Source of the DNA: Infirmifilum sp.
GTDB taxonomy: Archaea > Thermoproteota > Thermoprotei > Thermofilales > Thermofilaceae
DNA: 64,000 nucleotides
Reading direction: 5' to 3'
NCBI GenBank assembly: GCA_041287245.1
Contig: JBEULP010000046.1
Location: 1-64,000 of the forward strand
This document shows positions 22,559 to 57,859 of this stretch, one piece after another. Made by a program: the position numbers and the translations under genes. The number at the start of each line of letters is the position of its first letter. The first letter of the stretch is position 1. The notes under the pieces are model-generated. The model was not told where the DNA came from and did not search any database. It saw only the letters and a program-made list of their open reading frames with translations.

Positions 22559-22577
22559 AACTGACCTCATCGCAGCC

Positions 22578-23150
22578 CTAAATGGGCGAGGCTTTCTGAT
22601 TTCGCCATATGTAATTCCTAAGCTCTTCGAATTTATTATTGAAAGACTCTAGAATGCATTTCTCGTCGAGATACAGGTTGAGTATTTCGGAGACTTCCCT
22701 GATGATCTCTCTCACCTTATTTACGGTCTCGAAACTCGGGGGAGTCCCGAAGGAGGTGTTAGCTGCCACGGGGCCTATAACCCAGACATCACCCTTGAAT
22801 CTTCCCGAGGCATAGGCCAGCACAGCCACATGGGCCGGGCTAACATTGTGGGCTCCTGTATCCCGTGAAAGGAATTCAGCGACCTCCTCGGGGGATAAAA
22901 GCTTAGGGTCGAGCCTCACTTTCACGAGGTCTCCGACCTTACCATAGGACTGGTCGAAGACGTCGATGAAGATGACCAGCTCGACTCCTTCAAGGTAGGA
23001 TGCTACGGTGAACGCGTCGAGCTCTGCGTTGACAGCTCTTACTCCGCACTCAGCAAAAGCCTCGGCGAGCAGCGGGCCTATCGCGTCATCCCCGTAGAGT
23101 GGGTTTCCTATACCCACAACTAGAAAGTTTTCACTCAATTTGAGGCGCAC
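22578..23150 (-). CDS. hydrogenase maturation protease
   Basis: VVGIGNPLYGDDAIG, IFIDV, GAH motifs. Confidence 0.9.
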   Translation of the reverse strand: MRLKLSENFLVVGIGNPLYGDDAIGPLLAEAFAECGVRAVNAELDAFTVASYLEGVELVIFIDVFDQSYGKVGDLVKVRLDPKLLSPEEVAEFLSRDTGAHNVSPAHVAVLAYASGRFKGDVWVIGPVAANTSFGTPPSFETVNKVREIIREVSEILNLYLDEKCILESFNNKFEELRNYIWRNQKASPI

Positions 23151-39407: not shown

Positions 39408-40310
39408 ATGTCAGAGCTTCCTTACCAGCTGATAGGCGAGCTTGCGACAATTTTAGCCTCTATCGCCTCCCTAGCATACTGGCTCGGCAGGAAATTCACA
39501 GAAATAGATTCAAGGTTCAGAGGAATAGAGTCTAGGCTGGATGGTGTCGACGAGAGGCTTGGAAGGGTAGAGTCTAGGCTGGATGATGTCGACGAGAGGC
39601 TTGACAACGCTGAGAAGGGTGTCGAAGCACTGAAAACCGACATGGAAATACTCAAGAGTAGGCTTGCCGGCGTTGATGATAGGCTTAGCAGAATTGAAGA
39701 AAGCGTTAAAAACTTGCAGGAGGATCTCGCGAAAGTCAATTCTCGGCTTACCAATGCTGAAGAAGGCTTCGAGCGCTTGAAAAGCGCTCTCCAAAAAGTC
39801 GAAGAGAGGCTCGATGGGATCGATTCAAAGCTTGCAGGTATCAACACCAAGGTTGAGAAGGTTGAGATAGACTTTAAGGCTTTGAGGAATGTGCTTCTGG
39901 ATTTAGTATCAACGGTTAGGAATGCTCAGGAATTCATGACGGAAATCATGTCATATGAGGGTGCCCTAAGCCAGAAAGGAGCTATCCTCGTGAAAGCTGA
40001 GCTAGGCAGGCTATACTCGTCACTGGTGGGCAGGATTAGAGGCAATCCTCTAACCAAGGAGGAGTTTGAGGAGATAGGAATCTACATAAAGAAGGATAGG
40101 CTAACCCTTGAGGAGGCCCAGCGGTTCAAAGAGCTGGCCTGGAAGCTCGTCCAGGAGTACTCCCACGAGATACCCGAGGTCTGGAAGTTTTACTGGTACG
40201 CGGTTGCATGGATAGGGTGGGCCGCCAGAATGGAGGAGGAAGAAGCTAAGAAGAAGACTCGGGAGACACAGGGGCAAAGCCACCAGTCGGGAGAGTCCTC
40301 CAACTTATGA
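39408..40310 (+). CDS. membrane-anchored coiled-coil heptad-repeat protein
   Basis: N-terminal TM (LASIASLAYWLGRKF), about 110 aa of RLDGVDE-type heptads, C-terminal GNPLTKEE domain. Confidence 0.8.
   Translation: MSELPYQLIGELATILASIASLAYWLGRKFTEIDSRFRGIESRLDGVDERLGRVESRLDDVDERLDNAEKGVEALKTDMEILKSRLAGVDDRLSRIEESVKNLQEDLAKVNSRLTNAEEGFERLKSALQKVEERLDGIDSKLAGINTKVEKVEIDFKALRNVLLDLVSTVRNAQEFMTEIMSYEGALSQKGAILVKAELGRLYSSLVGRIRGNPLTKEEFEEIGIYIKKDRLTLEEAQRFKELAWKLVQEYSHEIPEVWKFYWYAVAWIGWAARMEEEEAKKKTRETQGQSHQSGESSNL
39526..39603 (+). repeat. 36-bp direct repeat, 2 copies, 42-bp period, inside the coiled-coil gene
   Basis: tagagtctaggctggatg(g/a)tgtcgacgagaggcttg at 39526-39561 and 39568-39603, one mismatch. 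Confidence 0.9.
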
Positions 40311-40440
40311 CCTCACTCTCGCCTAAACGGCGTGGCTTTCAGTTGTCTTCTTACTAGAATCCTCATATTTTACCGTAGTAGGCCTTTCTGAGAATTAAGG
40401 GGGGCCTATAGGGAAGGTTTACCTCTGCGGCTTCTTCTCC

Positions 40441-54930: not shown

Positions 54931-55874
54931 GCCTACTTAGAGTGGAAGGTCTTACAGTTTCCTATAACTCGAGAAGGGGCCGGGTTGAAGCATTGAACAA
55001 CGTTACGCTGGACCTGGGCGAGGGCGAGGTTATGGGAGTCGTCGGGGAGAGCGGGTCCGGCAAGAGCACGCTCGGATTATCAATCCTCCGCCTCCTACCT
55101 GACAACGCTGTGGTAGAGGGAGGGTCAATCCACTTCAACGGCGTGAACCTCCTCGAGCTAGACGAGGAGAAAATGAGGGAGATAAGAGGGAAGGGCATCG
55201 GCATGGTGTTTCAAGACCCCTACTCTGCCCTGAACCCCGTAATGAGAATCGGGGATCACTTTGTAGAGCTGTTTCTCGAACACGGGTTTTTCCAGGACCG
55301 TGAGGAGGCCTTGGCGGAGGCCGGCGATATCCTTGAAAGCCTTGGGGTTCCTAGGGCAAGGCTAAACGACTACCCGCACCAGCTCAGCGGCGGTCAGAGG
55401 CAGCGGGTTGCGATAGGTCTCGCACTCGCTCTGAAGCCGAGGCTTGTAGTAGCTGACGAGATAACAACGGCTCTCGACGCACTAGTGGAGGCGCAGATAA
55501 TGGAGCTACTCAAAGACGTTAAGAAAGCCTACAAGACCTCAATGATATTCATAACCCATAACATGGGGCTCGTAGCAGAGTTCTCCGATAAAGTAACCGT
55601 GATGTACGCCGGGAAGGTGGTTGAGTCCGGAAAGACCGAGGAGGTCGTCGGCGAGCCGTATCACCCCTATACAAAAGCCCTCTTAGCCTCTGTCCCCCGG
55701 ATAGGAGGGTCGAAGGAGTTAAAGCCAATTCCCGGTGAGACGCCTGACATGAGGAGCCCCCCTAGTGGGTGCCGTTTCCATCCGAGATGCCCACTAGCGT
55801 TCGATAAGTGCAGAATAGAGGAACCTCCTCTGAGAAATGTGGGTGGTCGTCTTGTCAGCTGTCACATATGGTAG
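54927..55874 (+). CDS. dppD: peptide ABC transporter ATP-binding protein
   Basis: GESGSGKST, YPHQLSGGQRQR, HPYT, GCRFHPRCP; start at ATG 54927. Confidence 0.95.
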   Translation: MSLLRVEGLTVSYNSRRGRVEALNNVTLDLGEGEVMGVVGESGSGKSTLGLSILRLLPDNAVVEGGSIHFNGVNLLELDEEKMREIRGKGIGMVFQDPYSALNPVMRIGDHFVELFLEHGFFQDREEALAEAGDILESLGVPRARLNDYPHQLSGGQRQRVAIGLALALKPRLVVADEITTALDALVEAQIMELLKDVKKAYKTSMIFITHNMGLVAEFSDKVTVMYAGKVVESGKTEEVVGEPYHPYTKALLASVPRIGGSKELKPIPGETPDMRSPPSGCRFHPRCPLAFDKCRIEEPPLRNVGGRLVSCHIW

Positions 55875-56868
55875 GGAGCTGTTGAGGATTGAGAATTTAA
55901 GGGTCTACTACCCGGTCAAGAGGACGATAGAGGAGGTGCTCGGGAGGAAACAGCGATTCTTGAGGGCTGTGGACGGCGTCAGCTTTACTGTCTCAAGGGG
56001 CGAGATAGTGGCGCTGGTCGGTGAGAGCGGGTCAGGTAAAACAACAGTAGCTAGAGCCATTGTTGGGCTTGTGAAGCCTACCTCCGGGAAAATATTCTTC
56101 GACGGGCTAAGCCTAACAGACATGAAGCCTGGAGATATGAAGCGTCTCAGGAGGAGGATACAGATGGTCTTCCAGGATCCCACCGTTAGCCTTAACCCTC
56201 GGATGCGGGTCGGCGCGCAGCTCGAGTTCCCCCTTATGGTGAACGGGGTTGACTCTAAAAAGGAGAGACGGGACGCGGCATTGGAGGCCCTGAAAACGGT
56301 TGGCCTCACACCTCCAGAGGACTTTTACACCAGGTACCCGCACCAGCTGAGCGGGGGGCAGAGGCAGCGGGTAGCAATAGCCAGGGCTCTTGTCCTTAAA
56401 CCTGAATTCCTCATAGCAGACGAGCCCATATCAAATATAGACGTCTCAGCTAGGGCGCAAATCCTAAACTTGCTTCGAGAGATACGGAGTGATATGGGGC
56501 TCTCAATGTTGTACATAACACATGATCTCTCATCCGCGTGGGCCATCGCTGACAAGGTTGCGGTCATGTACCTGGGAAAAATCGTAGAATATGGAGACGT
56601 AGACCAGGTGTTCAGCAACCCCCTACATCCCTATACTAAAGCTCTCCTCAGCTCAGTCCCCAGCCTGACCCCAAAGCAAACGACTACGAGAAGGATACTG
56701 CTCCCAGGCGAGGTCCCCAATGCCATAGACCCCCCAGGGGGGTGTAGGTTACATCCCCGATGTCCCTATGCATCCAATCTCTGTGCGACCCTGGAACCGG
56801 AACTGACGGATGTGGGCAAAGGGCATCTAGTGGCTTGCCACCTCTACTCACACCACGAGGAAAAGTGA
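55837..56868 (+). CDS. dppF: peptide ABC transporter ATP-binding protein (exact start uncertain)
   Basis: AVDGVSF, GESGSGKTT, YPHQLSGGQRQR, GCRLHPRCP, VACH. Confidence 0.95.
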   Translation: MWVVVLSAVTYGRELLRIENLRVYYPVKRTIEEVLGRKQRFLRAVDGVSFTVSRGEIVALVGESGSGKTTVARAIVGLVKPTSGKIFFDGLSLTDMKPGDMKRLRRRIQMVFQDPTVSLNPRMRVGAQLEFPLMVNGVDSKKERRDAALEALKTVGLTPPEDFYTRYPHQLSGGQRQRVAIARALVLKPEFLIADEPISNIDVSARAQILNLLREIRSDMGLSMLYITHDLSSAWAIADKVAVMYLGKIVEYGDVDQVFSNPLHPYTKALLSSVPSLTPKQTTTRRILLPGEVPNAIDPPGGCRLHPRCPYASNLCATLEPELTDVGKGHLVACHLYSHHEEK

Positions 56869-57104
56869 TTTCACTTCAGCTCAACCTAGAAGACGTTATT
56901 TTCTCCTCTTGGGCGTCCAAATAGGTTAATTATTTCTCGAGCTCCATCCCCCATCTGGTTCAGTCACCGACTAGACCGGCTTTCCTTATACACAGCCGAT
57001 TCTAGGCTAGAAAGGAGTTTCTTCCACCATTGAGACGTGACGTGAAAATGTCGATATCATAATGTTGCATGAAAAACAGTGTCAACACTTTTCAAATTTT
57101 TTTA

Positions 57105-57372
57105 GTGTAGTGTCTGGTAGCCATCAGACCTCCTCCCCGCCCTAAAGAGGCGAGGGTTTTTGCGGGGGCTGCATCCACGGCTGAAGCTGGGTTTGAGGCT
57201 TGTGCCGGGTCTCGGGCACGTTGCCCCCTACCCTGCTCGGCGTGGGGCGTGGGCACGGGTGTCCGGTACACAGCCTCTACGGCGCTTCGAATACCCGCCT
57301 GAGGTCCACCAAGGCCCTCCCAATAACGTACTAGGGAGTACACAGCTAAGCGTTTCCGCTCACACCCCGCAA
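57105..57372 (-). ncRNA. structured RNA resembling an IS200/IS605 TnpB omega-RNA (reRNA), or a non-autonomous IS605 derivative
   Basis: GC-rich non-coding island; right-end-like hairpin CCCTCGCCTCTTTAGGGCGGGG followed by AGGAGGTCTG; hairpin-loop AGACC complementary to terminal GGTCT; GAAA tetraloop hairpin; long-range closing helix. Confidence 0.6.
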
Positions 57373-57430
57373 TAAACGACAAGGCTTTCAGTTGTAACAA
57401 GCTTTTAATAAGGAGGCTTGCACGGATAGC

Positions 57431-57859
57431 TTGATGAGCACGTCTAGATCCGAGCTTATTGGTAAAAGTGTTTACGACCAGGAAGCTAAGCTGATCGGGA
57501 CAGTTCAAGACATAGCAATAAAGTTAGGTGAAAAGGAAGTATCCTTGCTTGTTAGAACTCCCTCCGGGGTTTCCATGGAAATACCAGCAGACAAGGTTTT
57601 GAGTGTTAAGGATATTATTCTATTGAAAGAGGCTGTTCAGCTCCCTTCCGAGGCGGCTATTCAACCGCCTACGGTACCTGTAAGCCAGCCTCCACCCCCC
57701 GTGCCCGTATCACAGCCTCAGGCGCCTTTAGCTGGGATTAAGCTTCCCTTTTTCAGGCACGAAGAGAAGAAGATCTGCCCCTACTGTGGCAAGCCGGCAA
57801 CTTATATACCACAGTACAAGCGCTGGTATTGTTACAATTGTCAGAGATATATAGACTAA
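57431..57859 (+). CDS. PRC-barrel protein with Pro-rich linker and C-terminal zinc ribbon
   Basis: SELIGKSVYD.EAKLIGTVQDI...V.SVKDIILL; PPPVPVSQP; CPYCG...WYCYNC. Confidence 0.88.
   Translation: MMSTSRSELIGKSVYDQEAKLIGTVQDIAIKLGEKEVSLLVRTPSGVSMEIPADKVLSVKDIILLKEAVQLPSEAAIQPPTVPVSQPPPPVPVSQPQAPLAGIKLPFFRHEEKKICPYCGKPATYIPQYKRWYCYNCQRYID

Follow-up and report, generated by a model that had tools for sequence, protein, structure and literature searches.

The PATEs of Haloquadratum walsbyi have been described as lacking terminal inverted repeats and carrying IS605-type near-terminal palindromes, as too short to encode a transposase, with an origin by deletion of the core, and as occurring in heterogeneous, diverged copies together with terminal-only versions (PMC3119063). 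Excision of IS200/IS605 elements has been reported to require both hairpins and short DNA guides that pair with the TAM or end motif, and the same report describes PATE-like, omega-RNA-only insertion sequences of Geobacillus stearothermophilus that are gene-less, retain both ends and an omega-RNA, and depend on TnpA and TnpB in trans, with a genome-encoded TnpA able to excise such an element (PMC10055086). The omega-RNA (reRNA) of TnpB systems such as ISDra2 is described as overlapping the 3′ end of tnpB and the right end of the element, with the flank serving as guide and with a terminal pseudoknot, formed with an upstream loop, as its known core (PMC10097598). Standalone trans-acting omega-RNAs, with neither effector nor transposase at the locus, have been reported from genomes that hold a compatible effector, with activity in trans demonstrated (PMC10691335).

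The element described here occupies positions 57393-57125 on the minus strand of the window, by which we mean the whole 64,000-nt stretch of Infirmifilum sp. contig JBEULP010000046.1 that was analysed, and is very probably a gene-less PATE derived by internal deletion from an IS605 element with tnpA and tnpB, surviving as a likely immobile, decaying relic with no working TnpB guide. It is likely an ordinary member of a kind already published, gene-less PATEs that bear an omega-RNA being known. It differs from the H. walsbyi PATEs in belonging to a hot-spring archaeal IS605 family with a TTAC target, and in having kept the junction of tnpA start and tnpB tail together with a recognisable omega-RNA region; from the G. 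stearothermophilus elements in that its ends have suffered damage and searches turned up no cognate protein; and from the ISDra2 reRNA in the loss of the linker and stem beside the pseudoknot, in two broken helices, and in having neither an upstream tnpB nor a promoter. It resembles a standalone omega-RNA but would not be filed as one because its scaffold was not found intact and no promoter of its own was recognised. ISC1733 is a member of the IS200/IS605 family. SMN1 of Sulfolobus islandicus, a mobile, non-autonomous archaeal element of ~300 bp that takes its transposase in trans from ISC1733 (PMC3718332), is likened to the window element by description and not by sequence.

Genomic setting and element boundaries

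The genome assembly (1.81 Mb, 119 contigs, 50% GC) places the element in a 565-bp intergenic gap, with a peptide ABC-transporter ATPase gene (55837-56868, plus strand) on one side and, on the other, a gene divergent from the element that encodes a PRC-barrel protein with a C-terminal zinc ribbon (57434-57859, plus strand; PF05239, E 4e-8); the stretch is present in three DNA runs of one hot-spring study, of which two may be its source. The insertion lies 8 bases from a TATA-like box (57402-57411) that, as the sequence reads, would face the PRC-barrel gene and point away from the element. Neither the list of open reading frames nor Pfam revealed a tnpA or tnpB gene at the locus, and two open reading frames of 138 and 71 aa that overlap the element, without a Pfam match, were taken as spurious.

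The element was delimited as 269 bp between TTAC| and TCTG|, with the would-be guide beginning at 57124, because of the register of TTAC and the TCAG end of the family. The TTAC target motif (TAM; 57394..57397, minus strand) lies directly outside the element; of 51 motif hits among the fetched loci, 46 have TTAC in this register before the left end, and the bases farther upstream vary. At the other side, TCAG is the terminus in 28 of 29 aligned tnpB-adjacent copies and conservation stops beyond it. The terminus of the window element, GGTCTG (57125..57130, minus strand), comprises GGTC, the 3′ pseudoknot strand, and TCTG ending at 57125, a mutated end motif in which a T stands where 29/29 relatives have A. 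The guide boundary, which the original prediction had left at 57125 or 57124, is thereby settled at 57124 from the family TCAG end, and the chromosomal flank at 57105..57124 (minus strand) would be the guide if an RNA were made.

The neighbouring 250-bp stretch (56870-57124) is AT-rich, with a near-palindrome at ~57075-57086 and a plus-strand T-run, and found no match in 60 relatives. A 10-codon open reading frame begins directly past the element end, where the GGAGG of the element end could mimic a ribosome site.

Two ends of one IS605 family and the origin of the fold

Numbered from the TTAC, element bases 1-92 align with a Thermogladius element (L112) over its left end and transposase promoter at 74.7% identity (BLASTN, E 2e-11), with 16 further loci at E < 1e-3, and 57397-57365 reads as an eroded left end, in which TTAC precedes the same sequence as at the start of other elements of the genome. 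Within the left end (57365..57393, minus strand), 5 of 29 bases differ from intact L112 and the subterminal hairpin (57384-57365) is degraded: it folds as DNA at -0.3 kcal/mol, whereas 21 of 22 parent loci give values of -1.2 to -8.7 and the remaining one 0.0. Next to it, alignment to the parent 5′ ends identifies a probable relic of the transposase promoter (57340..57364, minus strand), a purine-rich BRE-like stretch and TATA position to which the role is assigned from position and archaeal consensus; the TATA-like motif, found in 20 of 22 parents, is replaced by a 3-nt gap, so the element has no TATA box of its own. A sigma-70 promoter scan was set aside, archaeal promoters lying outside its scope. 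Next, at 57262..57339 (minus strand), come the leader and the decayed beginning of tnpA (Y1 transposase), ~17-20 codons long, as placed by BLASTN and multiple alignment: BLASTN homology from the left end reaches 57290 against L105 (67%, E 7e-9) and 57277 against L134 (65%, E 2e-5), the final ~15 nt aligning with tnpA codons in the multiple alignment only, and the parent open reading frame behind this half is an NF033573 IS200 transposase.

On re-reading the sequence, every segment on which the original prediction was built was found where it had been placed, to within one base, including the GAGCG-GAAA-CGCTT hairpin (57361-57348), the segment with GTGCC...GGCAC (57234-57202), the arms of a closing helix (57372-57365 and 57167-57160), and the complementary AGACC (57212-57208) and GGTCT (57130-57126). 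The proposal that the ~110 nt at the 5′ side form an added RNA domain did not survive alignment, which identifies them as the left end, the decayed promoter and the first tnpA codons. The GAAA 'tetraloop' hairpin lies on the promoter relic, and the other 5′ hairpins and the closing helix likewise sit on the parent left end, promoter and tnpA start; judged by homology, these hairpins are left end, promoter and tnpA remnant, not a new RNA domain. The closing helix joins the arm of the left-end hairpin to a segment whose complement in the family is the right-end arm, and owes its existence to the likeness of the two element ends; it is lengthened by two G-to-T changes within the left hairpin. RNAalifold on three whole copies, with the C55 row poorly aligned, gave no convincing common 5′ structure. 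Folding of the 273-nt strand is modestly better than chance (z -2.29; 1 of 200 shuffles equally good), and the pseudoknot is not significant by itself because, when the sequence upstream was shuffled 5000 times, 27% of the shuffles contained a complement of the given 5-mer.

The claim that the 3′ half derives from a TnpB omega-RNA and IS200/IS605 right end is borne out by homology. The region 57125..57255 (minus strand) is a damaged omega-RNA scaffold made of the tnpB C-terminal tail and the right end, 70-71% identical to L109 and L112 and scoring 44.8 bits with a model of tnpB-adjacent omega-RNAs; element bases 145-271 match L109 at 71.4% (E 8e-15) and L112 at 69.7% (E 1.6e-13), similarity to tnpB-adjacent right ends of a kind whose lack was to have counted against the prediction. 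Nor did a confident Rfam assignment to another family appear: a scan up to E 10 gave four matches in all, none of them RNase P, SRP or H/ACA, and the sole match overlapping the feature was a sub-threshold one to HgcC (RF00062; 57228-57112, 19 bits, gathering 50), an RNA described as containing the IS200/IS605 right-end tetraloop (PMC4615843).

The intact elements L105, L108 and L112, with open reading frames for an IS200 transposase and TnpB, each match the window element at both of their ends, one end per half, and ~1.6 kb are missing between the two halves. The element thus presents a left end behind TTAC, a right end, no genes in its 269 bp and a single parent family, as PATEs do, and agrees with the alternative raised in the original prediction of a minimal non-autonomous element, here gene-less with both ends from IS605. 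In the course of events that we propose, one deletion would have produced a mini-element of ~270 bp, which would have been copied at least once, probably by TnpA in trans, yielding a sister on contig C86; the cognate autonomous element would then have been lost, or has gone unassembled, and the copies would have drifted to the present state, presumably a poor TnpA substrate with its left hairpin degraded and right-end motifs changed, with no promoter of its own and a scaffold without the conserved linker and stem. The omega-RNA-like structure would be a legacy of the parent element: all remnants of this sort retain the right end, and the omega-RNA overlaps it. Scans for omega-RNAs face a corresponding caution: any IS605 right-end remnant shows an omega-RNA-like fold with a good pseudoknot, and hairpins 5′ of such a fold can be left-end and promoter DNA.

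A first covariance model, built from five genome copies, matches 30 of 120 genomes of the class, the own genome included, and several of its top matches are 3′ ends of intact tnpA+tnpB elements; a scan with four parent TnpBs gave 79 loci. Thermogladius and Desulfurococcales are among the named thermophilic archaea from which the closest intact elements come. A family alignment of 29 tnpB-adjacent copies, some of them beside broken or partial tnpB genes (L119 was included; L136 and L138 were held out), supports a structure of 41 pairs, drawn by eye, that forms in 94.9% of cells, a value inflated by related sequences and by the drawing of the structure from the same sequences; two-sided changes occur at 17 pairs, 0 of 500 shuffles reach its pairing, and slid controls give 37-56%. 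This covariation-supported structure, the TTAC TAM and the TCAG end of a hot-spring archaeal TnpB family are a by-product that would be helpful in rebuilding a thermostable TnpB, with L112 as an example of an intact member to start from.

The tnpB copies of Ca. Wolframiiraptor (L136, L137, L138, L156 and L167) have omega-RNAs without the right-end DNA hairpin that retain the CCUCCCC/GGGGAGG stem and the pseudoknot strands; the loss of the hairpin may mark immobilised TnpB systems.

State of the scaffold and possible retained functions

The scaffold had been called apparently intact, a description that comparison with the family contradicts. Mapped by hand onto the 29-copy alignment, the window copy forms 30 of 41 family pairs, against 83-100% in relatives (lowest 34/41), and even in the kindest register ~33/41 by hand count, below the lowest relative. 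It has 9 of 41 invariant columns changed or deleted, 17 of 79 near-invariant columns changed (0-6 in relatives) and three single-base insertions. A 9-nt deletion at 57166..57167 (minus strand) removes the end of helix P3, the AAA linker and a CCU strand, a segment found in 29/29 relatives (as AAACCTC in 25 of 29 tnpB-adjacent copies) and accounting for five of the invariant columns; the CCU strand normally pairs with AGG beside the pseudoknot. Linker and P5 are thus deleted, and P3 and P4 are broken. With a model of relatives the window copy scores 44.7 bits. The tnpB-adjacent copy L158, which was held out, reaches 157.3; scores range over 61-93 in five tnpB-adjacent copies that have no right-end hairpin and over 55-140 in gene-less or remnant copies of other genomes. 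An omega-RNA of this genome that belongs to another TnpB family is level with the window copy at 44.2. Changed pairs still pair in 3 of 8 cases, against 180 of 240 among relatives with L112 as reference (Fisher p 0.03; p 0.003 against L109 and 0.09 against L113, the sequences not being independent), while differences from L112 fall at 17 of 51 unpaired and 12 of 76 paired positions (p 0.03), a bias not significant against three other parents (p 0.07-0.19). Judged by these comparisons the scaffold is damaged, not intact.

Several features count against a mere relic, namely the right-end hairpin (8/8 pairs), the pseudoknot (4/4) and private changes that add RNA pairs. Hairpin P2 (57202..57219, minus strand), whose loop GACC (57211-57208) is the 5′ pseudoknot strand, forms 5 of 6 family pairs, one of them changed on both sides to U-A from C-G/G-C, a state seen in 0 of 29 relatives; the right-end subterminal hairpin (57135..57156, minus strand) contains one inserted base and folds as DNA at -6.6 kcal/mol. 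Of the 5-bp pseudoknot originally proposed, the 4-bp GACC/GGUC core is the family pseudoknot and is intact, whereas the fifth pair, produced by the A-to-T change in the end motif, is private to the window copy, the two positions being A-A in 29/29 relatives. The covariation sought for AGACC/GGUCU was not seen: GACC/GGUC pairs in 95.7% of cells over the 29 tnpB-adjacent copies and is conserved, with no two-sided change.

It is conceivable, though improbable, that the mutations crippling the transposon were kept, as a lock on a refolded RNA with the 5-bp pseudoknot and the end-joining helix, which would guide a non-cognate TnpB or act by itself as a regulatory RNA next to the PRC-barrel gene; this rests on the private changes in the end motif and left hairpin that add RNA pairs. 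We regard as comparably improbable a domesticated remnant that is independent of TnpB, serving as a structured RNA (a TnpA decoy or regulator) or as DNA beside the PRC-barrel promoter. The persistence of full length after ~26% divergence from the sister copy, the addition of pairing by three private changes, the proximity to the TATA-like box of the PRC-barrel gene and the report from Halobacterium of an expressed PATE-derived RNA whose overexpression improved growth (PMC4615843) are in keeping with it. The added pairs, however, are missing in the sister copy, the whole-strand fold reaches a z of only -2.3, and the closing helix follows from the likeness of left and right ends. Template switching between inverted repeats could perfect such a helix at the DNA level. 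Were the first of these two readings true, the locus would be a transposon relic turning into a host RNA, with a guide crossing TnpB families.

Nor was the element found at the ortholog loci searched, and many other remnants of all sizes persist in the genome. The family model had no hit at 18 PRC-barrel ortholog loci scanned, of ~95; the best orthologs share 61-64% amino-acid identity, are not syntenic and have unalignable upstream regions, and no true empty site was seen, the nearest orthologs being <=64% identical. BLAST of the element interior gave no match in 40 genomes of the order, and the family model matches 4 of 22 other genomes of the family; an exact degenerate motif searched over 301 genomes of the phylum, too strict to inform, hit the own genome only. 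Neither a donor joint nor an empty site was found in the three hot-spring DNA runs, of which run X3 leaves part of the element uncovered and is uninformative on excision. The outcome that fits best is the one named beforehand as a refutation, a decaying IS scar without conservation in relatives.

The original prediction had raised the possibility of action in trans. A working omega-RNA, supplied as a read-through transcript, that loads a TnpB encoded elsewhere and directs it to copies of the flank next to TTAC, above all at the empty site, is unlikely in our judgement. PATEs are reported often to encode omega-RNAs that need TnpB in trans (PMC10055086), and standalone omega-RNAs to function in trans (PMC10691335); the window copy has a whole pseudoknot and right-end hairpin, the correct TAM and a defined guide boundary, and the genome holds two full-length TnpBs, one with the same right end. 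Against this stand the deleted linker and P5, the broken P3 and P4 and a score at the level of a non-cognate omega-RNA, together with the missing promoter, for which read-through would be a possible route. Searches of the 119-contig assembly by tblastn with four parent proteins and with a profile found no TnpB of the cognate family, only the two distant full-length proteins (417 and 437 aa) together with a third, broken one and a short tail, the best matches to the parents reaching 21-31% identity over partial lengths; the assembly being fragmented, the cognate element may be unassembled. The suggestion of a nuclease-dead partner finds no counterpart here: both full-length TnpBs have acidic residues at the three RuvC motif positions in their translations, read by eye. 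A tnpB with the same 3′ end, which had been sought elsewhere in the genome, does exist on C86, but it is of another TnpB family, and there the right end pairs with an AACCTCC segment that is missing in the window copy.

This C86 element (G000:C86:31500-32848, L001) is a complete tnpB-only element with a left end, a TATA box, the 417-aa TnpB and a right end, and C9:1560-1832 is an internally deleted 270-bp derivative of it. The 437-aa TnpB (G000:C82:31350-32820, L002) has no family right end and is probably an IS607-type remnant, because an apparent broken helix-turn-helix resolvase start, read by eye, precedes it.

By the usual logic the natural target of the guide would be the empty site, and the genome offers no good TTAC-flanked target, the best of 10,947 sites matching 7 contiguous bases or 10 of the first 12; the guide 20-mer is missing from the metagenome contigs, and phage and plasmid collections match the right-end hairpin only. 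One IMG/VR contig has TTAC followed by 14 exact guide bases, a length in the range that sufficed for SisTnpB7 (13-14 bp; PMC11043419), but the match ends at guide base 14 and lies in an open reading frame of a 36% GC contig. We judge this 18-mer match to be chance, about one being expected by our own estimate if the collection holds tens of Gb.

Sister copy, past mobility and related remnants

Past mobility of the gene-less PATE is indicated by the sister copy at G000:C86:30102-30360, which is colinear with the window copy through the junction (identity at 187 of 254 aligned positions, ~74%) within different flanks, and is old. The two have in common the promoter gap and an exact 15-mer, found within 3 mismatches at 1 of 89 other loci, and the sister too is without the linker, while the private pairing changes of the window copy are missing from it. 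Because of this colinearity, the common gap and 15-mer and the linker loss, the mini-element appears to have arisen once and been copied long ago, probably after the linker was lost.

That the locus belongs to a homogeneous PATE family still mobile today and kept by TnpA in trans is very improbable. The intact TAM and right-end hairpin and the existence of the sister would accord with it, but the sister is only 74% identical and no near-identical copy occurs in the genome, the left hairpin is degraded and the right-end motifs have changed. The four bases 5′ of the right hairpin, which from their position would be the right-end guide, read AAAC in the window copy and GAAC in 27 of 29 relatives. 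No Y1 transposase above the Pfam cut-off was found in the fragmented assembly, where one 17.7-bit fragment was seen, and tblastn with four parent TnpAs returned nothing.

Four other decayed copies occur in the genome, among them, besides the sister, three of the same omega-RNA family on contigs C29, C38 and C55, and terminal hairpins and end remnants of all sizes are numerous. Terminal-only remnants of ~40 bp lie at 22563-22605 and 40310-40346 of the window (both minus strand) and, just beyond it, at G000:C69:64092-64130; in these the start of the left end and the tail of the right end are fused with a single hairpin, and about eight such fusions occur in the genome. The elements seem to cluster near one another. 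At G000:C86:30102-30440 (L056) the sister mini-element and a terminal-only remnant on the opposite strand meet tail to tail, and the best-preserved omega-RNA copy (C38, 1880-2015; 95 bits) is cut by the left end of another element.

Same-family mini-elements formed independently are found in relatives: L099 (G043:C2), L101 (G006:C1), L073 and L077 are gene-less, with other deletion points. L099 and L101 have kept the TATA box and score 100-138 bits, and their genomes, G043 and G006, hold an intact tnpA+tnpB element; these are better candidates for trans-acting omega-RNAs than the window copy.
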